From an uncultured Candidatus Saccharibacteria bacterium (GTDB taxonomy: Bacteria > Patescibacteriota > Minisyncoccia > UBA6257 > UBA9933): 64,000 nt of DNA. The notes under the pieces are model-generated. The model saw only the letters and a list, made by a program, of their open reading frames with translations. It did not search any database and was not told where the DNA came from. The stretch is taken from NCBI GenBank assembly GCA_964642155.1, contig CAZXNT010000001.1, positions 65,238-129,237 on the forward strand, written 5' to 3'. Each line of letters begins with the position of its first letter. Position 1 is the first letter of the stretch. Position numbers and translations under genes: made by a program. Positions 5,884-54,890 of this stretch are shown here, piece by piece.

Positions 5884-5995
5884 TTTTATAACATAATAAT
5901 AATATAAAAAGCTATTTAAAGCAATGAAAAAAAGTGTTAAATATTGGATTGACATTGAATTGGACGCTGATATAATTTTATAAACATTCACAAAC

Positions 5996-7477
5996 ATGCC
6001 ATTAATAATAAAAATTTTAATCCCAGGTATAATTATAGCGGTGATAGCCGCCGGTGGCGTAATAGTTTGGAAAATGTCGTCGCAACCGACTCCGGATTTG
6101 ACGGCCGTGGCGGTTCTTAAAGCGAACGATATTGACAATTCAATCGCCGTCCCTTTTGCAACGCCCGTGGTTCTAAGTTGGGAATCCAAGAATGTCGGCG
6201 ACTGCCTTATTTCCGGCGATTGGTATAGTCCGGTTTCAAATTCCGGCTTTCAATCTGTCGGCGAAATTAAAAAATCAACAAATTATGTTTTGGTCTGCGT
6301 TGACAACGAAGGCAAGGATGTTTCCGATTCAATTGCCGTTAATATTGACGAGAAAACAATTCCTCAAAACGTTTTACTCACGGATTTGTTTAAAGATTTC
6401 CGATATCTCTGGAAAAAAGAACTTTGCTTGGGATTAACAAACGACCCCGATGTCGTGGCTTTGCAAACCGCCTTATTTTTTGAAGGCATACTTTCTCCTC
6501 AGGAAAAAATCACCGGAAATTACGATAACGACACCTTTTTGGCCGTTAAAAAATTCCAGGAAAATTACGGCATTGTTCCGCAAACCGGCTGTGTCGGTCC
6601 TCAAACAATAGCGAAATTGAACGCGCTTTTTTATTATTATAATTACAGCGACCAGTCCGCCTTCCAAGAATTGAGTCAAAAACAAATAACAACAACTCAA
6701 CAAAAAATATCTTTATATCAACAAACAAAAAGCGCGCCGGCAACGGTTCCCGCAACTCCCATTGTTCCCGCCCCCACTCTAACTCCCACCTCAACTCAAA
6801 TTCGTCCGCCGATAACCGCCCCGACGACTCCAACAATAACTACCCCCACTGCAAGACCTATTGTTGACCTGAAAGTTAATGGTTTAAGTCGCAGCACAAC
6901 CAGCGTCAAAAAAGGAGAAACTGTTACCCTTACTTGGACGTCAAAAAACGTGAAATCTTGCGTTGCTTCCGGAAGTTGGACGGGAACAAAACTGATTTCA
7001 AACACAACCGGAGAAAAAACAGAACCCATTAATAAATATTCCACTTTTAAATTAACTTGCGAAGGAGAAAATAACCAAAACGCCGCTGATTCGGTTTATG
7101 TGAGCATACCTTATGTTTATACCCCATCAACAACTGAAACTGAAAAAGCTCCTGTTATTGATAAAATAGAACCATATGCGGTTGTTCTTAATCCCGTTTC
7201 TCAATTATATGATGGAACAATAAAGATTATAGGGTCTGGATTTTCTCCTGGCTCAATAATTCATTTTGCAGGAAGAGATATAACTCCTGGCCAAGGTTCA
7301 ACAGAAAACACTTTAAAATTTAGCTTACCATTTTTTCTCCAACATGGGGAAATTGCCAACCCTAAATGTCCTTTAAATTATCAGTATCATGAAATAACAG
7401 TTGAAGAAGGTGGACTTATGGGTGAAGATGGACTCATTAGTAATAAAGAAACTTTTTGTATTTATTTTGGTAATTAA
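5996..7477 (+). CDS. cell-envelope protein: N-terminal TM, PG_binding_1-like peptidoglycan-binding domain, Pro/Thr linker, two Ig-like Cys-pair domains
   Basis: The motif LAVKKFQENYGIVPQTGCVGPQTIAKL matches the peptidoglycan-binding domain signature. PT-rich linker PATVPATPIVPAPTLTPTSTQIRPPITAPTTPTITTPT. Repeated modules of the form TWTSKNVKSC...TFKLTC. Confidence 0.6.
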   Translation: MPLIIKILIPGIIIAVIAAGGVIVWKMSSQPTPDLTAVAVLKANDIDNSIAVPFATPVVLSWESKNVGDCLISGDWYSPVSNSGFQSVGEIKKSTNYVLVCVDNEGKDVSDSIAVNIDEKTIPQNVLLTDLFKDFRYLWKKELCLGLTNDPDVVALQTALFFEGILSPQEKITGNYDNDTFLAVKKFQENYGIVPQTGCVGPQTIAKLNALFYYYNYSDQSAFQELSQKQITTTQQKISLYQQTKSAPATVPATPIVPAPTLTPTSTQIRPPITAPTTPTITTPTARPIVDLKVNGLSRSTTSVKKGETVTLTWTSKNVKSCVASGSWTGTKLISNTTGEKTEPINKYSTFKLTCEGENNQNAADSVYVSIPYVYTPSTTETEKAPVIDKIEPYAVVLNPVSQLYDGTIKIIGSGFSPGSIIHFAGRDITPGQGSTENTLKFSLPFFLQHGEIANPKCPLNYQYHEITVEEGGLMGEDGLISNKETFCIYFGN

Positions 7478-7478
7478 T

Positions 7479-8480
7479 TCAGCTATTAGATAAAGCGATG
7501 ATTCGCTCAACGCTCAAATTCTGCGGCCTCGCATTCGGCTCAACACCGATTAATTTTAATTTTTCAATAATTTCTTCTTTGATTTTTGTCTTATTTATAA
7601 TTTGTGGTTCATTTTTATTACATTGTGCCTGCGATAGCAGATCTAATGTAATATTATTTTTATTTACTTTATCTCCCGCTATCCTATCGGATAGCGTGCT
7701 ATCCGATAGGATAGCTGTATTTTTGCCCGCAATTTCTGACATTAAATTATTTACAATCGTCTTCCTCGGCTGTTTAAAAAGAATTTTGATAAATTTATAA
7801 TATTTCTCATTATTACATTTCAACCGCGATAGCAGTTGAAATGTAACCGGCGTTAATTTAATAATCGCGCTATCCACTTTCGGCGCCGGTTTAAAATCAT
7901 TACGCGACACATAACCGATAATTTTCGGCTCAGCCCAAATCTGAACGCTAGCTGCCAATAAATTAATTTGCGGCGACTTGGCGCAAACGCGCTCCGCCAC
8001 TTCTTTTTGAATTAATAAAACAATTAATTCCGGCTTGCCTGCCCCGCTGTGCCCCGTAGTGAGTTTTGCTCTACTACTGGTGTAAGAAGCTTGCTTTTCT
8101 TCAGAGTACTCCAACCCGCCCAAAATCCTGAATAAATAACCAGTTATGTAATAGGGGATATTACCAACGATTTTATAATTCTTAATTCTGAATTCTGAAT
8201 TCTGAATTAAACGCGGAAGCACTTTCAATGCGTCACCTTCAATAATTTCTATATTTTTATCTCCCTTAAATTTTTCTTTAAAATCTTCGGCTAATTTCTT
8301 ATCTTTCTCAATCGCAATAATTCTACATTCTGAATTCTGCATTCTTAATTCTTTAGTAAGTTCCCCATGCCCGGGCCCAATTTCAATCACAACATCGCCG
8401 TCTTTCAATTCCAACGCTTCAACAATTTTCCGCAATTTCTCCTTATTTTTCAAAAAATACTGTCCAAGATAATTTCCCAT
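7479..8480 (-). CDS. ksgA: 16S rRNA (adenine1518/1519-N6)-dimethyltransferase KsgA/RsmA, carrying several in-frame repeat insertions
   Basis: Conserved motifs GQYFL, VVIEIGPGHGELT and GNIPYYIT. At 333 aa it is longer than typical KsgA. The extra segments correspond exactly to DNA repeats (two 34-bp palindromes, two GAATTCT tracts, one ATCCTATCGGATAGC palindrome). Confidence 0.85.
   Translation of the reverse strand: MGNYLGQYFLKNKEKLRKIVEALELKDGDVVIEIGPGHGELTKELRMQNSECRIIAIEKDKKLAEDFKEKFKGDKNIEIIEGDALKVLPRLIQNSEFRIKNYKIVGNIPYYITGYLFRILGGLEYSEEKQASYTSSRAKLTTGHSGAGKPELIVLLIQKEVAERVCAKSPQINLLAASVQIWAEPKIIGYVSRNDFKPAPKVDSAIIKLTPVTFQLLSRLKCNNEKYYKFIKILFKQPRKTIVNNLMSEIAGKNTAILSDSTLSDRIAGDKVNKNNITLDLLSQAQCNKNEPQIINKTKIKEEIIEKLKLIGVEPNARPQNLSVERIIALSNS
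7813..7846. repeat. 34-bp palindromic repeat TTACATTTCAAC-CGCGATAGCAG-TTGAAATGTAA. Family copies also at 7618-7651, 8515-8548, 9206-9239, 16057-16090 and 44096-44129.
   Basis: Read directly. Conserved core CTGCGATAGCAG flanked by TTACATT/AATGTAA arms. Three copies lie in-frame inside ksgA and the Mur ligase gene, three are intergenic. Confidence 0.85.
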
Positions 8481-8581: not shown

Positions 8582-9193
8582 TTAATTAAATTCAGAAAAA
8601 ATTTTTTCGTCATCTATTTCGCCAACAGTTATAATTCTAATATGATTTTTTAATTTTTTATTAATAATTTCTTTATATAATTCTTTTGATAACGGCCATT
8701 TGCCGATAAAAACGCTTTTTTGAAACGGCCGATATCCCAACCCAAATAATTTGAATCGCAACCATTCTCTTTCTTTTTTTATTTTTTCCGGAATATCAAA
8801 CATTACAATTCTCCATTTTCCATCCCATTCTTTTTTTTTATTATTTTGTTGAATTTTTTTAAAATATTTTAATCCCAATAAAGTCAATTTATATTGTTCA
8901 TCATTTTTTTCAATTAATCCTTTTTGTTGTAAACGATATAAAATAACTTTTGCGTTATTCTTTTTTAAATTTTTAAGAAATTCTTTAATCTCAATATAAT
9001 CGGAAATAAAATCTCTACTATTCCTCATCCCAAAATCAAAAGCTCCGCCCACTCCCATTCTATTACTCATTAATATTCCTTCTCCTGTTTTAATAATTCC
9101 TTGCCCAATTCCAAAAATAACTGCCAAACTTGCCGCTCCTAAACTATATGGTAAATCTTTAAATTGTTCTTTAATTCTTTTTCCTCCTTTCAT
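8582..9193 (-). CDS. PaaX-like winged-helix regulator (Cas2/VapD-fold C-terminal domain)
   Basis: C-terminal motif WDGKWRIVMFDIPEKIKKEREWLRFKLFGLGYRPFQKSVFIGKWP resembles the PaaX signature. N-terminal wHTH ILYRLQQKGLIEK. Bracketed on both sides by copies of the 34-bp palindrome. Confidence 0.4.
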   Translation of the reverse strand: MKGGKRIKEQFKDLPYSLGAASLAVIFGIGQGIIKTGEGILMSNRMGVGGAFDFGMRNSRDFISDYIEIKEFLKNLKKNNAKVILYRLQQKGLIEKNDEQYKLTLLGLKYFKKIQQNNKKKEWDGKWRIVMFDIPEKIKKEREWLRFKLFGLGYRPFQKSVFIGKWPLSKELYKEIINKKLKNHIRIITVGEIDDEKIFSEFN

Positions 9194-21766: not shown

Positions 21767-22240
21767 TCAAAAATTTACAAAATGAAATGCCACTATACCG
21801 AATGCCACGGCAACATTTAAAGATTCTTTCCTACCTTTCATCGGAATTTCCAGAATTTTATCGGCTTTTTTCAGGATTGACAACGGCAAGCCCTTAACTT
21901 CATTGCCCAACACCAAAGCAATCTTACGAGACTTAGTCTCATAAGATTTAATTTTATAATACGGAATTGATTTTTTACTTTGCTCAACAGCAAAAATTTT
22001 ATAACCGTCCTTTTTAAGTCGGTCAATTAAACGGGCTGTGGATTTAAAATGTTCCCACCCTACGTATTTCTCCGCGCCAAGTGAAACCTTTACCAATTGT
22101 TCGCGCGATCTGCCGAATTCATCAACCGGTTTCGGCGTAATGCCGCATAAATATATTTTTTTAATTCCAACGGCATCGGCGGTGCGAAATATGGAACCGA
22201 CGTTATAAAGAGAACGGATATTGTGGAGAATAAGAATCAT
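21767..22240 (-). CDS. SpoU/TrmH-family RNA 2'-O-methyltransferase
   Basis: SPOUT motifs NVGSIFRTADAVG, LVLGNEVKGL, IPMKG. Confidence 0.75.
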   Translation of the reverse strand: MILILHNIRSLYNVGSIFRTADAVGIKKIYLCGITPKPVDEFGRSREQLVKVSLGAEKYVGWEHFKSTARLIDRLKKDGYKIFAVEQSKKSIPYYKIKSYETKSRKIALVLGNEVKGLPLSILKKADKILEIPMKGRKESLNVAVAFGIVAFHFVNF

Positions 22241-25200
22241 CTTAATGATATTGGTGAAGTAATAATAAAATACAAATCTTTTTCGCCATTATAAGGAACA
22301 TAACTGTCACTATCCCAATAAACAAAATGGCCATTAATCCATGCGTCATTCTCGGAATACCCTAATTTCCAATTTTGTCCGGAACCTCTAAATACAAAAT
22401 TAAAATAATACCATTTCGAAGCGGCGAGAGTGATACGCGGAAAACTGAAAGTATTGATTCCGGTTGTTAAATCAGACGTTGTAAATGAATGATTTACCAA
22501 AGATGAACAATTAACATAATTAACGTCGCATTCATAAAAATAAAAATTGTGATTGTCCTGCTGGCCAATATCTTTCATATAAATACTTAAAGAATTAATT
22601 CCGCCGCTTAAATTATTCCCCAAAAATTGCCGATAATAAGAATACTGTGCTTGTGTCGTATTTATATAATCTATTTGTTGAGCGAATATAAATCTTTCAT
22701 TTAAAGAATACGGTATATTTATTTCTTTGCTAAAACTGGCAAGCGATTCATTTCCTGATTGGTCAATAGCCACAATAGAAAATTTATAATTGCGTCCAAC
22801 TTCATTAATTGCAATTGTTGTTGAGGTCGCGGAAGTGATTATTTCCGGTAAAACCAAAGTTGAGCTAGAAACCAAAGAACTGATATCAGTAATTCTATAA
22901 GTCGGGGCCGATGAAGAAGCGTTAAAATATCTCGGCTTATCCCAATTTAAAGAAAATGCTAATGTACTGGTTGAATAATTCGCTTCAAAATTTTGCGCCA
23001 CTGATTGAGAAATACTCGCAGGAAGTTCAATCGGCGATTGTGGCGAGCCGGTTTTTATTAAAAAATATAAATCTTTTATTCCCGCGTCAATGTACGCGCT
23101 ATTATTATCATATTTTGTCGCTTTCCCGTAGATATAAGAAGAGCTGTTGTTTGAGCCGTAAAAATAAGAATAATTTTGATAAATTTCAAATTTGAGTTTG
23201 TAGTATTTTGACGGGTCGAAAGTGAATGATTGCTGAATGGGAATCGTATAATCTTTATCAATATTAAATTCAAAATTTAAATTTGGACAATCGCTTCCGT
23301 AAATACTGCCATTGGCATAGGTGGCGCCGGGATTATCGCGAGTGCAGGTATTTGAAGAAATTTTTATAAGATTGCTATAATCTGATTCATTAGATTGCCA
23401 AAAAGTCGCGTTAATATAATAAGTTTCTATCCAATATCCGGAGGAAGGCAGTTTTGCATGAAAAGTTATGCTTTGGGGCGATCCCAATAAACCATTGCCA
23501 AGATCTTGATCAAAATGGCCGTTGCCATCGCCTTGATCAAAAACGAATTTATCAAGCTGTTGAGCAATAATTAAAGTTGAATTTGGAATTGAGATTTCTT
23601 TTTGACTTGATGTTGAATTAAAATTTTCTTTGTCAAAAGCTTGAATTGAAAATAAATAAGTTTTACCGAAATTATTTTCATTAAGTGAAATTATGGCCGC
23701 TGTTGAAGTCGTATTAATTTCCGCAAAAGTCGAACTACTATTACTAATATCGCTAATTTTGTAAATTATCGTTGAAGTGGCGCCGAAATAATCCTGCGAT
23801 ACATTCCAATTAAAATTTAATTCCATCGTGCTGGAACTGTATTGAATTGAAAAATTTTGCGGCGTTATCGGAGCGTTGCGCGGCTCAGGAAAATTTTGTG
23901 AATTTTGCGGCTCCGCTGAATTTCTTAAAATAAAATCATCCGCACTATCAGTATCATAACCATTACCGGAAAATCTATGCTCGCCGGAAACCATTAAATC
24001 AACAGTTGAGGTTGAAAACGCTTTTCGCTCCAATGATTGACCGTCTATAAAATTAACCGGATTATAATTTGCTTGGTCAATAATCGCATCATTCTCAAAC
24101 AATAAAATGCTTATGGTTTCACTGCCGCTGGTGGAAAGAGAATATGAACGATTTAATTTATCGGCGATCGCATATGTGCTACTGCCATAATTGCTTAAGC
24201 CAACCAGAAAAAAACTTTTTGCGGCAATTATCTGGCTAGATGAAAAACTGGAAAGTGAATTTGTGCTCGTGGCTGACCCTGTTTGTCTTTTTAAAGAATA
24301 ATTGCCGAGTTCAATTGAAGAATCTGTCGGATTATATAATTCCACAAAATCAAAATTATTTCCTGTTTTATCGGGATAAATTTCGCTGATAACAATATGA
24401 TTGACGCCTGCCGGTGCCAAAGAATTAATTAAAATAGTGGTTGAAGTGGCGGTTGACGAAGCGTTTTGATTGTCAAAAACAATTAAATCGACTTGGTAAT
24501 TGCCGGCTTGAGAATAAATGTGAGTAGTAGTAGCGGTTGTTGCCGAAGAAGTCGCATTATCGCCAAAATTCCATTGATAGGAAATAATTTGACCGTCAAT
24601 GTCAGTTGAAGAAGCGGCGTTAAATAAAATTAAATCGCCAACTTGAGGATTTAAAGAAGTATAAATAAAAGAGGCGACAGGACTTTGATTGTTTTGCAAA
24701 CAAGTTCTGAATTGTGTTTTCGGACTCGGACAAGTCTGAATTTCAAAATCTTGCGCATTATTATCTATATCAATAAAATCTCCACTTTGAAATTTTCTTT
24801 GAATACTTTGACCGTCCGCGGAATTTGTCGGAAAAACCGAGTTTTCAATAAAAATATTTTCCGCTTCGCCCCACGCAACGCTGTCAATAATCTGTCCCGT
24901 GTCATTCGCGCCGTAACGAATGGCAATGCCATTATTATTGCTAATTGTCTGCGTAGTGGTTGAATTCGAAACAACAGACATGTCACTACAATCGCTGTTT
25001 GCCCATAAATAATAACTATTGGCCGGAATAGAATCGCCACTCGTCCATGATTTAATTAAAGTGTCGCTTGCTCCAGTTTGAGTTCTTTTAACTAAACGGT
25101 AATTTTGAAGATTAATTACAGCGCTGTTTGGATTATAAATTTCTATAAAATCATCGTGCGTGCTTGACGCTGAAGCCAATTGAATTTCGGTAATTAAAAT

Positions 25201-26754
25201 TTTCAACGGCTCCGCACTTGTTTGCATATTATTCTGCGTATTACTGTTGCTTCCTCCACTGCTGCCACCGCTACTATTTACACTCGCGTTTCCGCTTCCG
25301 CTTCCGCCGGTATATCTAAAAACAATGGTGTTTGTTTGACCGCTTGTTTGATTACTTTGCTCATTGACGTTAATTACAATTTCTTCTTGTTGTTTCTCCT
25401 GATTTTTTATTTCTTCTTTTTTAATTCCTTCTTCATATAACAAATCACTGCCGATCGGCAGTAAACTGTTATAGTCTAAAATTTCATTTTTGATTTCTGT
25501 TGAATTATTGGTTTCTATTATTGAAGAAGTGGCTGTTTCATCAGAATTCGCATTATCAATAGCATTATCCAATAAAGAAATTTGTTGCGGCTGTTGCGAT
25601 TGATTAATCCCCAATAAATTGCCGATTGTTGATTTGACTTGGCTAAAAAGATTTTTTGCAGTTTCAATCGTTTTTGTTAAAAATGATTTATCTTCAATTT
25701 TTGTAAAATTCGGATCATTTTTCGCTTTTTCAACTTCTTGAAAGAAAAGATTAATAACTCCGGCGCCATATTGAACAGATTTAGTGGAAAGACGAGACCA
25801 GTAATCATTCACCACTCTATCTTCATCTTCTATTTTTAAAACAATATTAGATTTTGTTTCTGATATAAAACTATTGTGATAATTTTTATAAACAAATAAA
25901 TAATATAAATTATTATCTTCGTCGTATTTTGCCGCATAATAATAATCTCCATCTTTTTTCAACAATCCTTCTGTATTTGGCTGCGGCAACTCATATCCAC
26001 TCTGTATTCCAATCGTATCTTTGCTATAAAAATTATTATTTGAATATTTCGCCAACCCGTCAAAATAAGAATTTAAATCGGAAAAAATAAATGGGGGCTT
26101 ATTTGACAATCTTTTATTTAAATCAGCGTCGGGGTTAGAAAGAATAAATTTAGCGGTGTAATTTTCATAAGGACTATCTTCGGGATGTGGATCGTTCCTT
26201 GTGTGATCTGGAACAGATGCATCCTCAACTAAATGTAAAATGTGCCCCAAGATAAGCATTGCTTTTTCTTTCTCGCCTTGCGCATAAAATTTAACAGCTC
26301 TTTCCCAAATAAAATCAGTTTCCGTTGTTAAAGCGCTGATTTTTTTCTGCTGAATTGCCGTTAAAACTGAAGCAATTGTTGTTGGAACTTTATAAGTTAA
26401 GCTGTTTTGATTATAGCTATCTTGCGCCCAATCTTTAGATTTTTGCCAAGTGCCTAGATTAATCATGGGATCTATTGCCGGATCGTACGTTAATCCTCTA
26501 TTTTTTACTGGATCATAAAAATGATTCATCCAGCGCGGAATATCATCTTCTTGACGAACTCCATCTAAAAGATATGGAACTAATTCTTCATTGATTTTAT
26601 TATCTGAAAATTTTTGATTATAAAATTTAACAGCCTCATTGGTTAAATAAGCATGAGTTTCAATGCCATAAGCAAAAACATTATTAATACTAATAACAAA
26701 AAATCCTAATATAAAAATTGGGATTAAAAATTTTATATACTTTCTATTTTCCAT
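22237..26754 (-). CDS. giant secreted multidomain protein: Zn-dependent PLC/P1-nuclease-like N-domain, two lamin-tail domains, PKD domain, FN3-like repeats
   Basis: Signal peptide. HILHLVEDASVPDHTRND and YGIETHAYLTNEAV match PLC/S1-P1 zinc-site signatures. Lamin-tail-domain segments around FIEIYNPNS and FVELYNPTD. PKD signature WNFGDN...THIY. Confidence 0.6.
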   Translation of the reverse strand: MENRKYIKFLIPIFILGFFVISINNVFAYGIETHAYLTNEAVKFYNQKFSDNKINEELVPYLLDGVRQEDDIPRWMNHFYDPVKNRGLTYDPAIDPMINLGTWQKSKDWAQDSYNQNSLTYKVPTTIASVLTAIQQKKISALTTETDFIWERAVKFYAQGEKEKAMLILGHILHLVEDASVPDHTRNDPHPEDSPYENYTAKFILSNPDADLNKRLSNKPPFIFSDLNSYFDGLAKYSNNNFYSKDTIGIQSGYELPQPNTEGLLKKDGDYYYAAKYDEDNNLYYLFVYKNYHNSFISETKSNIVLKIEDEDRVVNDYWSRLSTKSVQYGAGVINLFFQEVEKAKNDPNFTKIEDKSFLTKTIETAKNLFSQVKSTIGNLLGINQSQQPQQISLLDNAIDNANSDETATSSIIETNNSTEIKNEILDYNSLLPIGSDLLYEEGIKKEEIKNQEKQQEEIVINVNEQSNQTSGQTNTIVFRYTGGSGSGNASVNSSGGSSGGSNSNTQNNMQTSAEPLKILITEIQLASASSTHDDFIEIYNPNSAVINLQNYRLVKRTQTGASDTLIKSWTSGDSIPANSYYLWANSDCSDMSVVSNSTTTQTISNNNGIAIRYGANDTGQIIDSVAWGEAENIFIENSVFPTNSADGQSIQRKFQSGDFIDIDNNAQDFEIQTCPSPKTQFRTCLQNNQSPVASFIYTSLNPQVGDLILFNAASSTDIDGQIISYQWNFGDNATSSATTATTTHIYSQAGNYQVDLIVFDNQNASSTATSTTILINSLAPAGVNHIVISEIYPDKTGNNFDFVELYNPTDSSIELGNYSLKRQTGSATSTNSLSSFSSSQIIAAKSFFLVGLSNYGSSTYAIADKLNRSYSLSTSGSETISILLFENDAIIDQANYNPVNFIDGQSLERKAFSTSTVDLMVSGEHRFSGNGYDTDSADDFILRNSAEPQNSQNFPEPRNAPITPQNFSIQYSSSTMELNFNWNVSQDYFGATSTIIYKISDISNSSSTFAEINTTSTAAIISLNENNFGKTYLFSIQAFDKENFNSTSSQKEISIPNSTLIIAQQLDKFVFDQGDGNGHFDQDLGNGLLGSPQSITFHAKLPSSGYWIETYYINATFWQSNESDYSNLIKISSNTCTRDNPGATYANGSIYGSDCPNLNFEFNIDKDYTIPIQQSFTFDPSKYYKLKFEIYQNYSYFYGSNNSSSYIYGKATKYDNNSAYIDAGIKDLYFLIKTGSPQSPIELPASISQSVAQNFEANYSTSTLAFSLNWDKPRYFNASSSAPTYRITDISSLVSSSTLVLPEIITSATSTTIAINEVGRNYKFSIVAIDQSGNESLASFSKEINIPYSLNERFIFAQQIDYINTTQAQYSYYRQFLGNNLSGGINSLSIYMKDIGQQDNHNFYFYECDVNYVNCSSLVNHSFTTSDLTTGINTFSFPRITLAASKWYYFNFVFRGSGQNWKLGYSENDAWINGHFVYWDSDSYVPYNGEKDLYFIITSPISLR

Positions 26755-27266
26755 ATTTTAGAATTTTTATTTAATTTTATTTCTATTAATAAATCAATTT
26801 CTCCATTTGAATTGTAAAGTTTAAATAAAGCCCCGTCATCATCTTTAAATGTTAATTTAATTAACGATAATTTAGATATCATCTCTTCTAATCTATTATT
26901 TGTTTTTAATTTCTCTAATCCTTCCTTCAATTTTGGGTCAACGCTCCCGTCGCTTCTTAACACAAAATATTTACTCGCCAACTCAATATCTTCTTTCTTT
27001 AACGCCTCAATAAACATTTGCAAAGTTTCTTCCGGAGTTTTACCGCCATAAATATCTTCTTCCATCGCTTTATTATAATTTTTTTCCCAAGTAAGATATT
27101 TTTCATAATTTTTCTGCGTTTCGCGTTGATATTTTGCCTGCGGACTTAAATATTTCCCCCATAACAAAAAACCTCCAATCGTAAAGATAATAATTCCTAA
27201 AAAACCTATTACAAATTTTCGGAAATTCAACTTATTTTTAAATTCATTATTAATTTGATTATTCAT
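26733..27266 (-). CDS. small membrane-anchored protein, paralog of 27833..28366
   Basis: N-terminal TM. Shared block YGGKTPEETLQMFIEAL...ELASKYF and C-terminal IWKIESI. Confidence 0.5.
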   Translation of the reverse strand: MNNQINNEFKNKLNFRKFVIGFLGIIIFTIGGFLLWGKYLSPQAKYQRETQKNYEKYLTWEKNYNKAMEEDIYGGKTPEETLQMFIEALKKEDIELASKYFVLRSDGSVDPKLKEGLEKLKTNNRLEEMISKLSLIKLTFKDDDGALFKLYNSNGEIDLLIEIKLNKNSKIWKIESI

Positions 27267-27280: not shown

Positions 27281-27817
27281 TTAATTATTTATTATATTAC
27301 TTTTATTAAAAGATGATTTTCTTTGTCTCATTCTTAATGTCGCAATAATAAAAACAAGAATTAGTTCAAAAAATGATGATGTTATTATATAAAAATTTAA
27401 AATGTTTTCTAAAATTTTAATTTCATAATCAGAATAAGAAAAAATTAAGATGTGAATAAATGGGAATATAAAAAGGGTTGCTATGATAATTAATATTGGT
27501 AAAACAAAAAAATTAAATTTATTAGATAAAATTTTTGACATCCATTTAATAATTAAAGCTGGCAATCCTATAAATAATATTAACATTATAATATATTGAG
27601 GGCTGAAATTTAAATTAAAAATATTTTTAAAGAAATTTTTGAGTATATTTAATCGTGTTTCATTTTCTAAATTTGGAAATATTATAATAAGTAATAAATT
27701 ATATAAAAATATAATAAATATAAAAAATAACAAATTAGTTAAAATAATTTTAAATTTCCAAAACTTGCTCTTCGGCTTATTATTCTTATTTAAAGAAATT
27801 AGTATTTTTTTGAACAT
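27281..27817 (-). CDS. polytopic membrane protein sharing an N-terminal motif with both flanking genes
   Basis: N-terminal KPKSKFWKFKIIL compares with KPKGKFWKFTLIF in the upstream paralog. Four or five TM helices. Confidence 0.45.
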   Translation of the reverse strand: MFKKILISLNKNNKPKSKFWKFKIILTNLLFFIFIIFLYNLLLIIIFPNLENETRLNILKNFFKNIFNLNFSPQYIIMLILFIGLPALIIKWMSKILSNKFNFFVLPILIIIATLFIFPFIHILIFSYSDYEIKILENILNFYIITSSFFELILVFIIATLRMRQRKSSFNKSNIINN

Positions 27818-27832: not shown

Positions 27833-28366
27833 TTATATTTCTATTATTTTCCAAATATTATTAGGATAAAGACCTATTCTAATATAAATTGGCTCGTCAA
27901 TAAAAAATTCTTTTCTACCAGGAATATCATCTGATGAAAAATATCCATTTGTAGATTTTTTAAGTAAACTAAGATATTTATCTATAAATTCTTTTGTCAC
28001 TTTATTTAATTTTTCCAATTCTTTTTCCTGATATTTCTCTATAAAATATTTACTCGCCAATTCGTAATTTCCTGTTTCAACGGCGCTTATGTACATTTGC
28101 AAAGTTTCCTGCGGAATTCTACCGCCATAAGTGTCCGCCATGGCTTTTTGATAATCTTCTTGTTTAATTCTTTCCAATCTTCCAGCTAATTCTTCAACCG
28201 CTTTTTCTCCCTGCCATTGCCTAAAAAAATACCAACACCAAGAACTGGCGATATACAAAACAAAAACACCGGCGATTATCGTGAAGAATATCAATGTGAA
28301 CTTCCAAAATTTGCCTTTCGGCTTATTAATTTCGTTTATTTGATTGTTTTGATTTTGATTTTCCAT
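27833..28366 (-). CDS. small membrane-anchored protein, paralog of 26733..27266
   Basis: Same architecture. Its start codon abuts the terminal inverted repeat of MITE copy 1. Confidence 0.5.
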   Translation of the reverse strand: MENQNQNNQINEINKPKGKFWKFTLIFFTIIAGVFVLYIASSWCWYFFRQWQGEKAVEELAGRLERIKQEDYQKAMADTYGGRIPQETLQMYISAVETGNYELASKYFIEKYQEKELEKLNKVTKEFIDKYLSLLKKSTNGYFSSDDIPGRKEFFIDEPIYIRIGLYPNNIWKIIEI

Positions 28367-28649: not shown

Positions 28650-29522
28650 CTACTTACAAAGACAGAGAAATGGATGAGCGCAGTCATATACATAAGTTGT
28701 ACCACATCCAACATTTAATACAGCATTACTCTCGCCAAAATATAATGTAGCTTCGCATGTTTTTCCAATTTGAGAACATTTAGTGGCGCAACTTACATCG
28801 CGACAAGTCCATTCTGAAAAAAGAGCTCCTCCGCCTGCTGTGGTTTGTGTCGTGTTATCTGGAAATTTGAAACCGCCAGCGGTACTGTGAATTGTGCCGG
28901 CAACTTCTAATTTGCTATTTGGTATAGTCGTACCGATGCCGACGTTGCCGTTTTCTAAAATTGTTAGGGTTTTAGTAGTCACAACACTGCTTACATATCT
29001 AGTAATATCAAAATCTCCAGAAGTGCCGCTTGATCCCATCTTCCAGCCGTGGATACCTCCAGCGCCGTTATTTTGCGCAAGAAAAATCTGATTCTTAGTG
29101 CCAAGAGAAGATTCTACAATTTCTAACTTATATGCAGGCGCCGTCGTCCCAATACCGACGTTGCCATTTTTTATGGTCAAAACATCTGAGTTATTATTAT
29201 TGATGATTAAGGCGGAATCGGTGCCGAGTTTGAATAAAGTGGAAGTGGCTGATTGTCTGGATAATTTAAGCACAGAATCGGAAGAAGTGGAGTAGATTTC
29301 CATTTTAGCGCCGGGATATAAGGTACCGATACCGATATTATTGCTGGAATCGGAATATAAGGTCTGGCCAGCTGGATTGGGAGGAATAGTAGTAGGGGCA
29401 TTCCAACTAAAAACTAATTTAATAATAATTGTGATTAAGAAAAGAGCGGCGAAAAATAAAGATGAATAAAAGAAGGGTTTTTGGTGATTTTTTTTGAAAA
29501 ATAAAATAACAGCCCGCGCCAA
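28650..29522 (-). CDS. secreted repeat protein with tail-fibre-like GNVGIGTT.P..KLEV repeats and a Cys-rich C-terminus
   Basis: Hydrophobic N-terminus. Three repeats NVGIGTTAPAYKLEI / NVGIGTTIPNSKLEV. The start is read as TTG directly after the (CT)n tract. Confidence 0.5.
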   Translation of the reverse strand: MARAVILFFKKNHQKPFFYSSLFFAALFLITIIIKLVFSWNAPTTIPPNPAGQTLYSDSSNNIGIGTLYPGAKMEIYSTSSDSVLKLSRQSATSTLFKLGTDSALIINNNNSDVLTIKNGNVGIGTTAPAYKLEIVESSLGTKNQIFLAQNNGAGGIHGWKMGSSGTSGDFDITRYVSSVVTTKTLTILENGNVGIGTTIPNSKLEVAGTIHSTAGGFKFPDNTTQTTAGGGALFSEWTCRDVSCATKCSQIGKTCEATLYFGESNAVLNVGCGTTYVYDCAHPFLCLCK

Positions 29523-29660: not shown

Positions 29661-31175
29661 TTATTTCATTCCGAAACTCACCATAAATTCAACTCCTTTG
29701 TCGGTTCGGTTAATTTTAGTAATCGGAAGATCCACATTATTAAAACCCTCGGCAATCAATTTGTTTTTAAAATCAATCGCCGCGTCTTCGCTCGGCCCTA
29801 AAGCGTTAAAAAGCAAGGGCATATCAATTGACTGGACATAAATTCTTCTGATGGAAATACTATCGCCGGCCGCCAAATTGCCGATTTTTTCAAAAAACTC
29901 CGACCACGCGGAACGCTCGGCGCTCACCTTAACGGCAAAATCTATTTTTTGGTTAAAACTTTCTATATCTTTTTTAATTTTTTCAAATTCTCCCCTTTCC
30001 GATTGCTTATATTGTCCCAAACCGGAAATTTGATTATTCAACGAAACAATGGTTTTATCTAAAAACAAATTATTAATACCGATAAAAACGATTAAAACAA
30101 CCGCCAATGTGATTAAAACGACATTGCGCCAAATTTTAATAAAATCTAAAATTCTGTGTTGGAAAAATTTTTCCTCCGTTCCTATTTTCGCAAGACTTAT
30201 CATATTGTCTTTTGAGCGCGGAGTTATTCCCCTAATGGCTGAACCTAAAACTGAAAACCAGGCTGGCTGGATATTTTCCGGCGCGACATCGCCGATTTTT
30301 TTAAGACTAAGCGGTTCAACTTTGCTGAAAGAAAAATTCTCGGACACTATTTTAACAATAGCGTCGTTTAAGCCGTAGGTTACTAAAATCATCTCGTCAA
30401 TTTGCTCTTTCCAGCGGGTATTATAAAAACTTAAAACTTTTTTAACGTCGTCAATAATTAATTTTTTGAAAAGATCCATGGGAATTTCTTTTATTTCCGA
30501 ATGGACCATTTGCCAAGGAACAAAATGGTTAAAATACAAATTGCCGTTTCTCACAAGATTAAAACTTAAACCGTTGACGCCAATATAAAATAAAATAAAC
30601 GGTTTGTTTTTACTCACATTTGCCCCAAAATCAACCGCCAATCTTGCGAGAGCCAAACCGCTGAATTCAAAAGCCACCGGCATAAAATTGGCTTCTTTTA
30701 AAGATTTATCAAATTCGTCAATCATTTGCGATTCGCTAAAAGCCCCAAGAATTTCCAATTGGTCGCGGCCATCAATCACTTCTTCGCCAATTGCCTGCCA
30801 ATCAGAATAAACCTTGCTAAAATCAGTCGGGGAAATCATTTTTAAATTCAAATCAACAGCTTCTTCAAGATTACCTTCCAACATCGGCAAATTAAATACC
30901 TGAAAATAAACGTTATTATCGGGGAAGTTAATAATAACGTTAAGCTTTTCTTTCGCTTTCGCGGTTATTTGGGAATGTATAACTGACAATGCCGATACAA
31001 ATCTTTTGTAATCGCTTATTTTACCGTCCTCAACCACTCCAGCCGCCAATTTCGCGGAATAAGAAATAAATTTATCATCTTTAATAAGACTAAATTTCAA
31101 ATCAACGTCGCTTATTTCTAAAGCGCCGATTTTCGGCTGGGGATTTAAAATTTTAAAAATTTTTTTGTAATTCAT
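29661..31175 (-). CDS. pilM: type IV pilus assembly protein, PilM-PilN(-PilO) fusion
   Basis: N-terminal actin-like PilM region (LEISDVDLKFSLIK, LGSAIRGI). Single TM helix (VVLITLAVVLIVFIGI). Coiled-coil PilN/PilO-like C-terminal part. Likely start MNYKKIF at about 31175. Confidence 0.6.
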   Translation of the reverse strand: MNYKKIFKILNPQPKIGALEISDVDLKFSLIKDDKFISYSAKLAAGVVEDGKISDYKRFVSALSVIHSQITAKAKEKLNVIINFPDNNVYFQVFNLPMLEGNLEEAVDLNLKMISPTDFSKVYSDWQAIGEEVIDGRDQLEILGAFSESQMIDEFDKSLKEANFMPVAFEFSGLALARLAVDFGANVSKNKPFILFYIGVNGLSFNLVRNGNLYFNHFVPWQMVHSEIKEIPMDLFKKLIIDDVKKVLSFYNTRWKEQIDEMILVTYGLNDAIVKIVSENFSFSKVEPLSLKKIGDVAPENIQPAWFSVLGSAIRGITPRSKDNMISLAKIGTEEKFFQHRILDFIKIWRNVVLITLAVVLIVFIGINNLFLDKTIVSLNNQISGLGQYKQSERGEFEKIKKDIESFNQKIDFAVKVSAERSAWSEFFEKIGNLAAGDSISIRRIYVQSIDMPLLFNALGPSEDAAIDFKNKLIAEGFNNVDLPITKINRTDKGVEFMVSFGMK

Positions 31176-31185
31176 ATAAAAAAGT

Positions 31186-33036
31186 TTAAAAACCAACTTC
31201 GCCGTTTTTTGAATCAAAACCGACATCACTTAATCCCTGAGTGGACACGCTCTTGGCGGAACCGGTTAACTGCAAATTAACAAATTCGTCAACGGCGCTT
31301 ATTAAAGAATCTCCGATTAATATCGGATACTTCCCGATTTGATTGGCATTTGGCAATAATTCTATTTGGAAAACAGCTTCAACCGGCTTATTAATAATGC
31401 CCTTGGTTGCCGCGATTCTATCAATAAGCCAACTCACTTCTTGCGTTCTTTCATTATAAACCGGGATAGTATTTATATTGCTTTTTGCTTCACCAATAAG
31501 CCTGACACCCGGACCAAGATACGCCCCAACACTCGCATTTTTAATATCAGTGGAATAATTCCTGACAATCCAATGAACAATAAAATTTATCGGATTATTA
31601 GCTTTCGGCGGAAGCGAACCTTTATTTAAAATTCCGGAAGCTAAAATTGAAAAATCGCGGAAATAAATTTTTGAATCAAGGGCAACGGCGCCGGCAACTT
31701 TTATTTCCCAATTTGCAAAACTAGTTGTTTTATCGGTCGCCACATAATACGGAACGGTCGGCGAAGAAATATCAGCCGCGACTTTCAAAATAAAATTTTT
31801 ATCGGACAATCTTTTAATAGGATAACTCGGCTTCACACTTATTTCAAATTCAACCGCGCCGCTTCCGCCGGGTTCAATTAAATGCAATTCTGCATTGCTT
31901 GCCGCATTCCACGTTAAAGTGTTATCGCGGGAATCAAAAGAGGCATTGGTTCTTAATTGGGAAAAATCAAACATTTCTCCGCTTAATTTCGTCTTAACCA
32001 CAACGTCTCCAAGTCCAACGTCGCTATTATTTGAATAAACAACTCTGAATTTTAAATTGCCACCCGGCAAAACATATTCCGAAGAAACGTCAAATTCAAT
32101 TTTTAAAAAAAGCGGCGACGGCGCGATATTCACCTTCGCGGATTTCTCGCTGATTTTAAAAACTTGATTTTCACCTGCCTGACCGGCGGGCAAGTAAGAA
32201 GCTTCAATGTTTGAATTGATTTCAAAAAACGTTTGATTAATGCCGGAAATTTTTCCAACAACGGCGATTTCGCCTTTCTGATTTTTATTTAAATTGCCAA
32301 TATCTAAAACATTGTCGCTAACCGCGGGGTTGGAACTTTTAACGATAAAATCTTTGGGAAAATTAAAATTCAGTTTAACGCTGGAAAAATCAAATTCGGA
32401 AATATTTGAATATTTGATTACCACTTCAAACTCTTCATTGTTTAAAACTTTTTCCGGAGCGACAAGGTCAAACTTGATGGCCGGTTCGCGGACGGAAACT
32501 TCCACGGTTTGTTTTTTTTCAAAAGTAGTTCCCAGAGCCGAGGTATAACTTACTGAAACATTGAATTTTTTAACTGACTCGCCGTCGCTAAAAATTAAAA
32601 TTTTTATTTTCTCGCTGAAACCGCTTTCTGGATTGATATCTCCGATTTCTTTTTCAAAATTTCTTTTTTCTTTGCTAATATTCAACGCCGCCACTCCTTC
32701 TGGCAATAAAACAGAAAGCCTAACGTTTTCCAAAACTTTTTTTGAACCATTGTTAAAATCCACCGCCAAATCAAACGGAACACCCATTAGAACATTGTCT
32801 TTGGCAGATGCGATAAGCGATATTTCGCGGCTGGCTGAGAAATAATTATAAAAATAAAAACTTGACACTGCCACTCCTATCGTCGCCAAAGCAACCAACA
32901 CCCAAAATATCCGATGGCTTATGAGGCTAATTTTTACGACGGGCGCGCCGGCTTTTTTGCCAAAATTTTGCGCTAAATCAAACTTTTGTTCCTTATTCCA
33001 ACTTGAACCGTAATTTTTATTATCTTCTTGGGCCAT
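31186..33036 (-). CDS. membrane-anchored protein with multiple beta-sandwich (CARDB/DUF11-like) domains, pilus-associated by position
   Basis: N-terminal TM (IFWVLVALATIGVAVSSF). Repeated V.V.Y.N beta-rich modules. Likely start MAQEDNK at about 33036. Confidence 0.45.
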   Translation of the reverse strand: MAQEDNKNYGSSWNKEQKFDLAQNFGKKAGAPVVKISLISHRIFWVLVALATIGVAVSSFYFYNYFSASREISLIASAKDNVLMGVPFDLAVDFNNGSKKVLENVRLSVLLPEGVAALNISKEKRNFEKEIGDINPESGFSEKIKILIFSDGESVKKFNVSVSYTSALGTTFEKKQTVEVSVREPAIKFDLVAPEKVLNNEEFEVVIKYSNISEFDFSSVKLNFNFPKDFIVKSSNPAVSDNVLDIGNLNKNQKGEIAVVGKISGINQTFFEINSNIEASYLPAGQAGENQVFKISEKSAKVNIAPSPLFLKIEFDVSSEYVLPGGNLKFRVVYSNNSDVGLGDVVVKTKLSGEMFDFSQLRTNASFDSRDNTLTWNAASNAELHLIEPGGSGAVEFEISVKPSYPIKRLSDKNFILKVAADISSPTVPYYVATDKTTSFANWEIKVAGAVALDSKIYFRDFSILASGILNKGSLPPKANNPINFIVHWIVRNYSTDIKNASVGAYLGPGVRLIGEAKSNINTIPVYNERTQEVSWLIDRIAATKGIINKPVEAVFQIELLPNANQIGKYPILIGDSLISAVDEFVNLQLTGSAKSVSTQGLSDVGFDSKNGEVGF

Positions 33037-33041
33037 TTTAT

Positions 33042-33614
33042 TTATATTAATAATAATTGATTTTGAGCAATTTTTCCAGCGCATTTGACGCATAAAAAAA
33101 TATGCTCGGGTTTTAAAAAATAATCGGCTCGCGGATTATCGCAAACAACGCAAGAAGCGTGTTCCGGGTCAAATCCCAAAATTTTCAACAAGCCGCGATA
33201 AATTACCCTATCTTCAAGGCCGGCCAAATCGGCGCTGAAAATTTTTTTAATCGCCTGCCAAAGACGCAAATCCTGATGAAGCTCAAAAGTCATTTCATTG
33301 ATAAATTGCGCGATATTCAAAAATTTCGCGAGATTTTCCGGATTTTTTTCCAATTGAGAACCGTCTTCAATAGTCAACGCATCAACCACCTGAAATCCCT
33401 GCCTGCCGGCAGATAAGGCATTCTTCTCAATCAACCGACAATTGACAAAATTAAGCGGCTGAAGATGGCTGTTGAGTTTGGAAGTTATTTTTCTCGCGCT
33501 TTTCGCCATGGCAATCACTTTACCGAAATCGCGGGTATATAAAGTAATAATGGCATCCAATTCTTTGCTTATTTTATTGTCGAAAACAAACGCCTCAGTA
33601 TAATGTTCAAGCAT
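33042..33614 (-). CDS. recO: DNA repair protein RecO
   Basis: OB-fold N-terminus and C-terminal zinc finger CVVC...CVKC. Confidence 0.6.
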   Translation of the reverse strand: MLEHYTEAFVFDNKISKELDAIITLYTRDFGKVIAMAKSARKITSKLNSHLQPLNFVNCRLIEKNALSAGRQGFQVVDALTIEDGSQLEKNPENLAKFLNIAQFINEMTFELHQDLRLWQAIKKIFSADLAGLEDRVIYRGLLKILGFDPEHASCVVCDNPRADYFLKPEHIFLCVKCAGKIAQNQLLLI

Positions 33615-33631: not shown

Positions 33632-33713
33632 GCTCCCGTGGCGGAACTGGAATACGCGCGGCGTTTAGAACGCCGTCCCGCAAGGGTTAGAGGTTCAAAT
33701 CCTCTCGGGAGCA
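33632..33713 (+). tRNA. tRNA-Leu (anticodon TAG), long variable arm
   Basis: Acceptor stem GCTCCCG/CGGGAGC. Anticodon stem CGGCG/CGCCG with loop TTTAGAA. T-loop GGTTCAAATCC. Confidence 0.75.
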
Positions 33714-33715
33714 CA

Positions 33716-34051
33716 TTATTTCCCCCTGTCGCCGTATTTTTCAAAAATCGTCCAAAAACTGAAAATTTTTTCTCCTTCGTTATAAACTTTATGAAAATCG
33801 CCGGCGGGTATAAGAACAACATCCTCTGCTTTAACGGAAATTTTTTGTTCCGCCACTTCTATTAATCCTTCTCCATCAATAAAAATATGAACCTCATCAG
33901 CATCGCTATGAGAATGACCGGTTGTGGCTTTCCCCGGATAAAGTTCTGTTAAGGAAAGAGTTAAATGATTTAAACTGGACAAGTCATAAACCTTATAAAT
34001 TTCATTGTCTCGTATGAGTTTGGCTGATTGTTTATATTCTTTGATATTCAT
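33716..34051 (-). CDS. cupin-domain protein
   Basis: Cupin motifs GHSHSDADEVHIFIDGEG and VVLIPAGDFHKVYN. Confidence 0.65.
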   Translation of the reverse strand: MNIKEYKQSAKLIRDNEIYKVYDLSSLNHLTLSLTELYPGKATTGHSHSDADEVHIFIDGEGLIEVAEQKISVKAEDVVLIPAGDFHKVYNEGEKIFSFWTIFEKYGDRGK

Positions 34052-34060
34052 ATTATTATT

Positions 34061-34132
34061 TGCCCTCGCGAGGAATCGAACCTCAATTTTAGGTTTAGGA
34101 AACCCATGTCCTATCCGTTGAACGACGAGGGC
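34061..34132 (-). tRNA. tRNA-Arg (anticodon CCT)
   Basis: Reverse complement folds with acceptor stem GCCCTCG/CGAGGGC, anticodon loop TTCCTAA and T-loop TTCGATT. Confidence 0.7.
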
Positions 34133-34229
34133 TTATTGTCAAATTATGATTGCTTGAATATAATAATTAAAACACAAATAATAATAATTTCAAAGGTCGT
34201 TTTAATTTTTTAATTTATAATTTAAAACA

Positions 34230-34535
34230 ATGATGCAAGGATTTTTTGGAAGCGGGAGTTTTGGAGCCGGCTTCAACAATATGATGAATAACTGGGGAAA
34301 TTGGGGAATGCCTTTCAGTGCCGGCGTGTTTTTTGGATTCGGCAGCCTGATTATGCTCGCTCTTATAGTTTGGGTTCTTTATTGGAAAGGAATCGCATTG
34401 TGGAAAGCCGCGCGCGCCGGAGAAAAATATTGGTTTATTGCCATACTTATAATCAATACGCTTGGTATTTTGGAAATACTTTATATTTACGTATTCAGCA
34501 AAAAACAAATTAAGGAAGAAAAACAAACGGCATAA
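34230..34535 (+). CDS. small Gly-rich two-TM membrane protein
   Basis: Gly/Asn-rich N-terminus and two hydrophobic helices. Preferred over the antisense ORF 34215..34619, which overlaps a tRNA. Confidence 0.4.
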   Translation: MMQGFFGSGSFGAGFNNMMNNWGNWGMPFSAGVFFGFGSLIMLALIVWVLYWKGIALWKAARAGEKYWFIAILIINTLGILEILYIYVFSKKQIKEEKQTA

Positions 34536-34547
34536 AATGCCGTTTAT

Positions 34548-34618
34548 GGGCCTATGGTATAGTGGTAACACGACTCCATGGCATGGAGTAGTCGGCGGTC
34601 CGATTCCGCCTAGGTCCA
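34548..34618 (+). tRNA. tRNA-Ala (anticodon GGC)
   Basis: G3:U70 identity pair in the acceptor stem GGGCCTA/TAGGTCC. Anticodon loop ATGGCAT. The T-loop reads TCCGATT (C at position 55 by my parse), which is unusual. Confidence 0.55.
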
Positions 34619-34663
34619 AAATTTTAATTTAATAAAGGTCGGCTAAATAAAAATTATATTTTT

Positions 34664-34909
34664 ATGTCAAAAAATGTAGGCGCGATAGATAGAGTTATTA
34701 GGATTATTGTCGGATTGGTTTTGTTGTATGGCGGATATTATTTCGGTATCTCAACTATTGTCGGAATTATTTTGATTGTATTAGGCGCGATTTCCATTAT
34801 TGACGCTATTACAGGATTTTGTTTGATTTATAAAATTTTGGGGATCAGCACCGCTAAATCAAAAAATCAAGAACAGACAACCCCGCCAATTCCACCCCAA
34901 GGACAATAA
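34664..34909 (+). CDS. DUF2892 (YgaP-like) small membrane protein
   Basis: GAIDRVIRIIVGLVLLYGG ... TGFCLIYKILGIST matches the DUF2892 pattern. Confidence 0.6.
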   Translation: MSKNVGAIDRVIRIIVGLVLLYGGYYFGISTIVGIILIVLGAISIIDAITGFCLIYKILGISTAKSKNQEQTTPPIPPQGQ

Positions 34910-35062
34910 TAATTTTGTGGGTAAGGGGAATCGGCTACAAGTAAATTTCCTAACGGAAATTTCTCGCAGCCCGCTCCTCGCGGCGCTCGCCTTTCGCCTT
35001 CGGCGAAAACTCGCGCATCGCTGCGGTCTTCGATTCCCCTTAAATAAACTTCAAGTTGAAAT

Positions 35063-35092
35063 AAAAACTTCCCGATTGGGAAGTTTTTATTT
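35063..35092. terminator. rho-independent terminator hairpin (aaaacttccc gatt gggaagtttt)
   Basis: Perfect 10-bp stem with T/A runs on both sides. Confidence 0.6.
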
Positions 35093-35098
35093 CAATTG

Positions 35099-35169
35099 AG
35101 CGGGTAAGGGGAATCGAACCCCTGTCATCAGCTTGGAAAGCTGAGGTAATACCATTATACGATACCCGC
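35099..35169 (-). tRNA. tRNA-Gly (anticodon TCC)
   Basis: Reverse complement has acceptor stem GCGGGTA/TACCCGC, anticodon loop TTTCCAA and T-loop TTCGATT. Confidence 0.75.
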
Positions 35170-54500: not shown

Positions 54501-54815
54501 TCCACCCCTTTCATATCTCAGTGTTAGCCGCCGAAAATCCAAAAACAAAATCAGTCTCGGTTTTGCCAAATCCCTTCTCCCAGAAAATAGTTTTGGCAAA
54601 ACCGAGTCCGCATTAGTTCCGCCACACTGCCCAAATACTTGGAGAGCAGAACCTCGAAAAAAAATGTCTTTTCTTTTTTAAAAGAAATTGGTCGCGCGCA
54701 AATCCGAAAATGCGAACAAAACTTTTCTGTGGTGTGGCGAGCGTTAGCGAGCGGCGGCGGGGCGGGTCAGTTGTTCCGCTCAAAATGGGTTCGTGCATTT
54801 TCAAACAAAGGGCAG

Positions 54816-54890
54816 TGTCCTCGACAGGAATCGAACCTGTACCGCCTCCTTCGGAGGGAGGCATTGTATCCATTCAACTACGAGGACTTA
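54816..54890 (-). tRNA. tRNA-Arg (anticodon CCG)
   Basis: Reverse complement has acceptor stem GTCCTCG/CGAGGAC, anticodon stem CCTCC/GGAGG with loop CTCCGAA, and T-loop TTCGATT. Confidence 0.75.

Follow-up and report, generated by a model that had tools for sequence, protein, structure and literature searches.

The zinc-dependent phospholipases C (PLCs) and the S1/P1 nucleases belong to one superfamily of three-zinc phosphodiesterases. The PLC side is represented by the phosphatidylcholine-preferring enzyme of Bacillus cereus (1AH7, PF00882), by the alpha-toxins of Clostridium perfringens and C. absonum (1CA1, 1OLP) and by Listeria PlcB (8CQM), and the nuclease side by 1AK0, 5FB9, 8QJL and 3W52 (PF02265). 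Here, a giant protein of 1505 amino acids is described that is encoded on a 64-kb stretch (the window) of contig CAZXNT010000001.1 from an uncultured Candidatus Saccharibacteria bacterium. Its first ~320 mature residues are strongly supported as a three-zinc phosphodiesterase of this superfamily, on the PLC branch, and its gene is strictly linked to that of a membrane-anchored protein, its obligate partner. It is highly probable (about 0.85) that the giant protein is a secreted three-zinc phosphodiesterase with an obligate partner, whatever its substrate, and the probability that it acts on lipid head groups is put a little below even (about 0.45).

Two other kinds of systems are relevant for comparison. 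ExeM/NucH-type nucleases resemble the giant protein as secreted multidomain phosphoesterases with lamin-tail domains (LTDs), but they are anchored at the C-terminus, their catalytic domains have EEP or other nuclease folds in place of the PLC/P1 one, and no partner gene has been described for them. The Lif foldases of Pseudomonas and Burkholderia lipases and the Tli immunity proteins of Tle phospholipase effectors are membrane-anchored private partners of lipolytic enzymes. They are like the partner described here by analogy only, as small membrane-tethered extracytoplasmic proteins encoded beside, and co-expressed with, a secreted lipid-hydrolysing enzyme; the partner is weakly NTF2-like, with no sequence or fold relation to them shown. 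Phospholipase-based harvesting of host lipids is not a new idea for the Candidate Phyla Radiation (CPR, Patescibacteria), since a secreted phospholipase was proposed for this role in Vampirococcus, another CPR lineage (PMC8080830). A description of the present family was not found in the literature on LTD or phospholipase C in Patescibacteria, Parcubacteria and CPR, and the family and its two-gene cassette appear to be new.

The catalytic domain and its zinc ligands

The original prediction, made from the DNA letters and their translation, had read the N-terminal region as a zinc PLC or S1-P1 nuclease-like domain on the basis of two motifs. Both were found in the translation, where residues 29-38 read YGIETHAYLT and residues 174-185 read HLVEDASVPDHT, and the resemblance is far beyond chance. 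The superfamily motifs H-F-x-D and H-x3-D-x3-P-x-H occur in the domain, and HFYDP is common to the domain and PLC. The family profile matched B. cereus PLC (1AH7) with E=0.005, and hhalign gave the pair a probability of 92-93%, as against 2% over 21 aligned columns for P1 nuclease (1AK0); both reference sequences were verified as identical to the PDB chains. The AlphaFold2 model of residues 1-382, built with 43 sequences in the alignment, was confident (pLDDT 85.6, pTM 0.83) and is predicted to have the all-helical PLC fold. When this model was compared with the PDB in Foldseek, PLCs were retrieved at E about 5e-5 and nucleases at E about 1, which places the PLCs nearer than the nucleases and agrees with the profile comparisons in upholding the predicted domain. 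PF02265 gave no match to the giant protein at E<=10, and by sequence the protein is not an S1-P1 family member. The single-sequence search of the N-terminal domain against the PDB returned noise only (a lipase, E about 1).

The ligands of PLC are W1 (main-chain N and O), H14, D55, H69, H118, D122, H128, H142 and E146, in the numbering of the established structures 1AH7 and 1AK0. Explicit alignment pairs H69, H118, D122, H128 and E146 with H78, H174, D178, H184 and E197 of the giant protein, and the pairing of W1, H14 and D55 with Y29, H34 and D70 was made from their order, their invariance and their place in the helices. The candidate metal ligands are thus Y29 (main chain), H34, D70, H78, H174, D178, H184 and E197, with H190 or H171 in addition. 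Conservation was scored in an alignment of 278 members to the family profile, with pairwise identities down to ~30%. Tyrosine occupies position 29 in 264 of 269 relatives (W in 3, F in 2), and H34 is found in 269/269, D70 and H78 in 273/273 each, H174 in 274/274, D178 in 273/274, H184 in 271/273, and H190 and E197 in 273/273 each, so that every one of these nine positions is at least 98% conserved. Compared with the full set of nine zinc ligands that the original prediction had in view, eight positions are in register and near-invariant, and the ninth, the column of PLC His142, is not conserved and has probably been relocated. His190 stands at the end of a private motif, H184-T-R-N-D-P-H190, followed by a loop of variable length; this residue, or a second extra histidine, His171 (93% conserved), may complete the third metal site in place of PLC His142.

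A catalytically dead or metal-depleted domain, serving as the binding module of an adhesin, was also considered. The absence in register of one canonical ligand, PLC His142, would fit such a role. However, eight ligands and His190 are kept across relatives as distant as those aligned here, and Asp70, the likely general base, does not vary. A decayed site would not be expected to show ligand conservation this close to absolute, and the idea, which is very improbable, was rejected.

Secretion of the giant protein by the Sec pathway is strongly supported, and its sole hydrophobic segment is the N-terminal signal peptide. Cleavage after VFA is predicted to leave Tyr29 as the mature N-terminus. An A, G or S directly precedes the N-terminal aromatic residue in 266/269 relatives, the aromatic itself is present in 269/269, and in most relatives it lies 20-33 residues from the protein start; together these features point to a signal-peptidase site that exposes residue 1, as in PLC and P1 nuclease. 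Because the leader would be cleaved so that the amino group of Tyr29 can bind zinc, the enzyme end is likely to be free and not anchored, and no anchor was found elsewhere in the giant protein. If the protein is retained at the surface, this would depend on the C-terminal domains or on the membrane-anchored partner. The earlier picture of a surface protein on a stalk is therefore not established.

The family and its partner gene

The partner gene lies directly upstream of the giant gene and runs into it, its final 22 nt being shared with the beginning of the giant ORF (open reading frame). The overlap sequence, ...TGGAAAATAGAAAG..., is read as W-K-I-E-S in the partner frame, which ends in WKIESI and a stop codon, and as M-E-N-R-K in the giant frame. 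The same 22-nt overlap was seen in five loci, namely the window and four of seven metagenomic loci, and the two genes appear to be translationally coupled. In each of the seven metagenomic loci, the gene next upstream of the PLC-like gene is a partner homologue. With a partner profile, a homologue was also detected directly upstream and on the same strand in 80/80 loci of the Genome Taxonomy Database (GTDB), where the partner ORF stops 45-266 nt short of the catalytic-domain alignment, at or near the start codon of the giant gene. The ~110-aa domain of the partner carries the invariant pattern D..GG..P.ETL...A...A..YF...WK, and against the PDB and Pfam the partner showed no more than weak NTF2/DUF4878 signals.

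The family is large and is restricted to Patescibacteria. A homologue collection of first 77 and then 162 relatives contained Patescibacteria wherever a relative was named, in agreement with the CPR affiliation suggested by the original prediction, and the public annotation of these relatives is "hypothetical" or "lamin tail domain-containing". When the profile was run exhaustively against 1.84 billion cluster representatives, 6856 matches lay at E<=1e-3, of which 4097 reached E<=1e-10 and 1011 reached E<=1e-30, and the family thus comprises at least 1011 clusters at 50% identity. Among the best 150 matches, the domain starts within the first ~70 residues in all and at ~20-35 in most, and most of the proteins are 1000-1900 aa long. 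In a scan of one genome per GTDB species, at least 510 loci, or species genomes, with a family member were found; the best 80 of these were all from Patescibacteria where the title names a taxon (24 titles read "bacterium" only), including Wolfe-, Jorgensen-, Harrison-, Colwell-, Lipton-, Brenner- and Yanofskybacteria, Paceibacterota and Minisyncoccia. The original prediction had not noted how large and taxonomically confined the family is, that the upstream partner is strictly conserved, or that the gene lies on the minus strand.

Domain architectures were counted in 83 full-length representatives. LTDs were found in 73 of them, PKD domains in 12, FN3 and beta-helix/NosD domains in 7 each and Big_13 in 3, with a single SNase domain and a single HHH_3 (ComEA-type) domain. 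By BLAST and Pfam, six relatives (P0065, P0186, P0241, P0246, P0256 and P0272) have a staphylococcal-nuclease domain (PF00565) exactly between the PLC-like domain and the LTDs, at the position of linker 347-513 of the giant protein. The proximal part of the relatives, consisting of the enzyme and the LTDs, was shown to be conserved and the distal part to be variable.

Compared with B. cereus PLC, the family domain is 18% identical and falls below the Pfam threshold. It has Tyr in place of Trp at the N-terminus, and a histidine at +5 where PLC has one at +13, which makes its N-terminal arm 8 residues shorter; in place of PLC His142, not in register, it has the invariant His190. In the AlphaFold2 model, an extra subdomain of ~100 residues with a beta-hairpin, absent from PLC, is predicted at residues ~250-345. 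The family domain is moreover fused to ~1150 residues of LTD, PKD, FN3 and beta domains and has an obligate upstream partner gene. The alpha-toxins carry a calcium-dependent PLAT/C2-like membrane binder as their C-terminal domain, in contrast to the LTD, PKD and FN3 domains of the giant protein, among which no membrane-binding module was detected. The S1/P1 nucleases have the fold and the W1...H6-type spacing in common with the family domain, but no sequence-profile relation to it beyond the H...D...P.H motif. The family therefore differs from all characterised members in its N-terminal Tyr, short arm, HTRNDPH motif, extra subdomain, LTD-rich giant architecture and partner gene.

Several relatives have interrupted or divided genes. 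At L001 9540-9678 and L002 9580-10180 (homologues P0036 and P0001), the gene call stops ~14 codons past the first LTD motif, INEVAWMG....EW, where full-length relatives go on with IELKN. The DNA after the break is similar in the two loci (TTGTCCCACAAA...TTTAGGGTAAARCTTYTAAGCAC); a small CxxC...CxxC ORF follows this shared DNA in L002, and the L001 contig ends 82 nt later. The break looks like a homologous insertion at the same codon, possibly an intron or a mobile element. An Rfam scan of the two interrupted homologues gave no match, and the window protein has no insertion of this type. The closest orthologue with the same C-terminal modules, at L003 3725-8066 (Candidatus Wolfebacteria GCA_016219775.1), has a frameshift in LTD1 that divides it into ORFs 3725-5578 and 5427-8066. 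At L007 4001-7521 and L008 4001-7947, the PLC-like domain (341-355 aa) and the LTD-bearing rest (808-968 aa) are called as two genes, adjacent or overlapping. These split versions may be assembly errors, pseudogenes or genuine two-gene forms.

Proposed mechanism and candidate substrates

In the proposed mechanism, signal-peptidase cleavage after VFA would free Tyr29. Like Trp1 in PLC and P1 nuclease, this residue would coordinate one zinc through its amino and carbonyl groups, with His34 and Asp178 as the further ligands. A second zinc would be held by Asp70, His78, His174 and Asp178, and a third by His184, Glu197 and the relocated histidine (His190, possibly His171). A zinc-activated water would then attack the phosphodiester, with Asp70 as the general base. 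The substrate would most likely be a phospholipid head-group phosphodiester in the envelope of a neighbouring or host cell, and the released diacylglycerol could be reused by the lipid-auxotrophic CPR cell. The two LTDs, the PKD domain and the two FN3+beta modules would serve as a spacer and targeting arm, and the partner, in the membrane of the producer itself, would most likely act in immunity or inhibition, or as a dock.

Three considerations favour a lipid substrate. The homology measures put the domain nearer to PLC than to P1 nuclease; PF00882 is the only catalytic family that Pfam matches to the giant protein (E=0.021), and among the relatives precomputed PF00882 matches exist in ~11, with 3 further ones matching at E<=0.001, below the Pfam cut-off where a score was shown. 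A membrane-tethered partner would make most sense, by the Tli/Lif analogy, as self-protection of a membrane built from scavenged lipid, or as a dock. Furthermore, lipid acquisition in Patescibacteria is an acknowledged gap, with no mechanism of lipid uptake or breakdown identified according to a 2024 review (PMC11665869).

A number of observations weigh against a lipid substrate. The PF00882 match to the giant protein reached 15.2 bits, under the Pfam cut-off of 26.8, over residues 144-206, and thus covers only the HLVEDASVPDH region of the N-terminal domain; the whole-protein Pfam scan at E<=1 gave no PF00882 match. The identity of 18% to PLC is too low for transfer of substrate specificity. 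The PLC His142 column is variable in the family (G in 153, D in 57, E in 19), with D193 at this position in the giant protein, and the invariant Arg74, Arg186 and Lys107 have no PLC counterpart. The spacing from the mature N-terminus to the first histidine is Y1...H6, as in S1/P1 (W1...H6) and not as in PLC (W1...H14), from which it follows that the arm helping to form the head-group pocket of PLC is absent. The giant protein has no membrane-binding domain of the alpha-toxin type, and the role suggested for the partner is pure inference. The LTDs of the family and the nuclease domains of some relatives, which are considered next, belong to the same side of the balance.

With the same fold and three-zinc chemistry, the substrate could instead be a nucleic acid, and the protein would be a P1/S1-like extracellular nuclease and/or 3'-nucleotidase, breaking down DNA and RNA of the environment or of a host to supply a nucleotide-auxotrophic CPR cell with nucleotides or nucleosides. 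The LTDs would then help to engage DNA, and the partner would dock the enzyme at the cell surface, close to uptake systems. The products of SNase, 3'-phosphates, are substrates of P1-type 3'-nucleotidases. The Y1...H6 spacing, the invariant arginines near the metal site, the staphylococcal-nuclease domain in six relatives and HHH_3 in one are in line with such an activity, as are the genes for a nucleoside phosphorylase and a YfbR-like nucleotidase near the family member at one locus. The LTDs, present in most full-length relatives, are typical of extracellular nucleases: deletion of the LTD lowers the in-vitro activity of the extracellular nuclease ExeM (PMC6085458), and a nuclease/LTD protein is known from DNA-degrading Izemoplasmatales (PMC8289736). 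Patescibacteria also lack nucleotide synthesis (PMC11665869). On the other side, PF02265 matched at no threshold, the whole protein is strongly acidic, and a membrane-anchored extracytoplasmic partner is without precedent for nucleases. SNase fusions occur in only ~2% of members and could equally represent two complementary activities on different substrates. A nucleic-acid substrate is regarded as a tentative alternative, somewhat less probable than a lipid one.

Neither characterised branch is closer to the family than the other, and its many private invariant polar residues (T33, E69, R74, K107, Q116, H171, R186, D188 and S238-N239...D246-T247) suggest a specific and different pocket. Some other extracellular phosphodiester, such as teichoic acids, glycerophosphodiesters, sphingolipid-type lipids or capsular phosphoglycans, might thus be the target, in which case the protein would be an envelope-remodelling or attachment factor and not a nutrient harvester. 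The variable distal domains (PKD, FN3, beta-helix/NosD, Big) are typical of glycan- or surface-binding proteins and would suit this role. However, there is no positive evidence for any particular substrate of this kind, and members of the PLC/P1 fold are not known to act on such polymers; this alternative is considered improbable.

Returning to the lipid substrate, the proposal can be extended to a Patescibacteria-wide lipid-harvesting cassette of two genes, in which a PLC-type enzyme on a host-targeting arm works with a partner that protects the producer membrane or passes diacylglycerol into the membrane via a hydrophobic cone. In this extended form the proposal is rather unlikely.

Gene layout, surroundings and significance

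The original prediction had placed a 1505-aa ORF at 22237-26754 with no strand given; it was confirmed by the ORF listing and translation as a single uninterrupted ORF with an ATG start on the minus strand. The window has a G+C content of 37% and contains the giant gene in one copy only. The coordinates of the gene, its domains and the adjoining genes are given in Table 1.

Table 1. Features of the giant gene and the genes upstream of it, in window coordinates.
Feature	Coordinates	Strand	Remarks
Whole ORF	22237..26754	minus	1505 aa; TGA stop and the ATG of the SpoU-methylase gene downstream overlap as ATGA
Signal peptide, residues 1-28	26671..26754	minus	MENRKYIK, then hydrophobic core, then NNVFA
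Catalytic domain, residues 29-346	25717..26670	minus	Diverged phosphodiesterase of zinc-dependent PLC / P1-nuclease fold
Linker, residues 347-513	25216..25716	minus	Helical part, then low-complexity acidic Ser/Asn/Gly-rich part
Lamin-tail domain 1 (LTD1), residues 514-681	24712..25215	minus	Pfam match 514-629
PKD domain, residues 689-772	24439..24690	minus	Pfam PF18911, PF00801
Lamin-tail domain 2 (LTD2), residues 783-952	23899..24408	minus	Pfam match 783-897
FN3-like domain a, residues ~958-1059	23578..23883	minus	
All-beta domain A, residues ~1060-1237	23044..23577	minus	No Pfam match
FN3-like domain b, residues ~1249-1350	22705..23010	minus	
All-beta domain B, residues ~1353-1505	22240..22698	minus	Duplicate of domain A
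Partner gene	26733..27266	minus	177 aa; N-terminal transmembrane helix and ~110-aa weakly NTF2-like/DUF4878-like domain
Multi-pass membrane protein gene	27281..27817	minus	178 aa; between the partner paralogues; module membership uncertain
Second partner paralogue	27833..28366	minus	177 aa; 57% identical to the partner of the Wolfebacteria orthologue (L003)

The two LTDs and the PKD domain that had been read from the sequence all exceed their Pfam thresholds, and FN3-like domains follow them. Against the PF00932 cut-off of 34.3 bits, LTD1 alone scores 41.2 bits (E=2.3e-10), LTD2 alone 51.7 bits and both jointly 75 bits (E=7.7e-21); the two copies are 29% identical to each other. The PKD domain matches PF18911 (E=8.7e-18, 64.6 bits, cut-off 27) and PF00801 (E=1.8e-13, 50.7 bits, cut-off 23.5). 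The C-terminal third is a tandem repeat of an FN3-like domain plus an all-beta domain of ~170 aa, with copies 29% identical (E=2e-16). The two all-beta domains had no match in the searches, Pfam included, and an NCBIfam scan of the whole giant protein gave no match.

Downstream of the giant gene lie the genes for SpoU methylase, RpiB and GAPDH, an arrangement that is not conserved elsewhere, and the neighbourhood beyond the partner varies among loci and consists mostly of housekeeping genes. A putative PaaX_M-like regulator is found one gene upstream of the partner in four of the seven metagenomic loci (L002 6738-7328, L003 2204-2803, L005 2666-3241 and L008 2594-3232); the only PaaX_M-like homologue of the window lies ~18 kb away at 8582-9193 (minus). 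Upstream of the cassette, all on the minus strand, are a 290-aa ORF at 28650-29522 with an N-terminal hydrophobic segment, GNVGIGTT.P..KLE(V/I) repeats and a Cys-rich C-terminus, a 522-aa ORF at 29661-31229, and a 635-aa ORF at 31186-33093. The first two have no Pfam match; the third has a transmembrane segment and Ig-type repeats that are weakly DUF11- or adaptin-C2-like, which suggests a further protein of the envelope or surface. Between the 290-aa ORF and the cassette, at 28599-28572, is the best promoter-like site of the region. Elsewhere in the window, five tRNA genes (Leu-tag, Arg-cct, Ala-ggc, Gly-tcc and Arg-ccg) occur at 33632-35169 and 54815-54887, four of them clustered in 1.6 kb with alternating strands. 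At L003 10720-15675, the Pfam list shows a gene for GyrA/topoisomerase IV subunit A that contains an intein with a LAGLIDADG endonuclease.

The family is a large, CPR-restricted group of secreted enzymes whose active site, though altered relative to that of PLC, is intact. With it the PLC / P1-nuclease superfamily gains a third and deeply diverged branch, in which one metal ligand has probably been relocated. Patescibacteria cannot make lipids or nucleotides, and the gene pair is a concrete candidate for the acquisition of these compounds from neighbours, with the giant enzyme as a plausible tool for harvesting the lipids or nucleotides of neighbouring cells. If the lipid-harvesting proposal is true, the cassette would supply the route, missing until now, by which lipid-auxotrophic CPR bacteria acquire their lipids.

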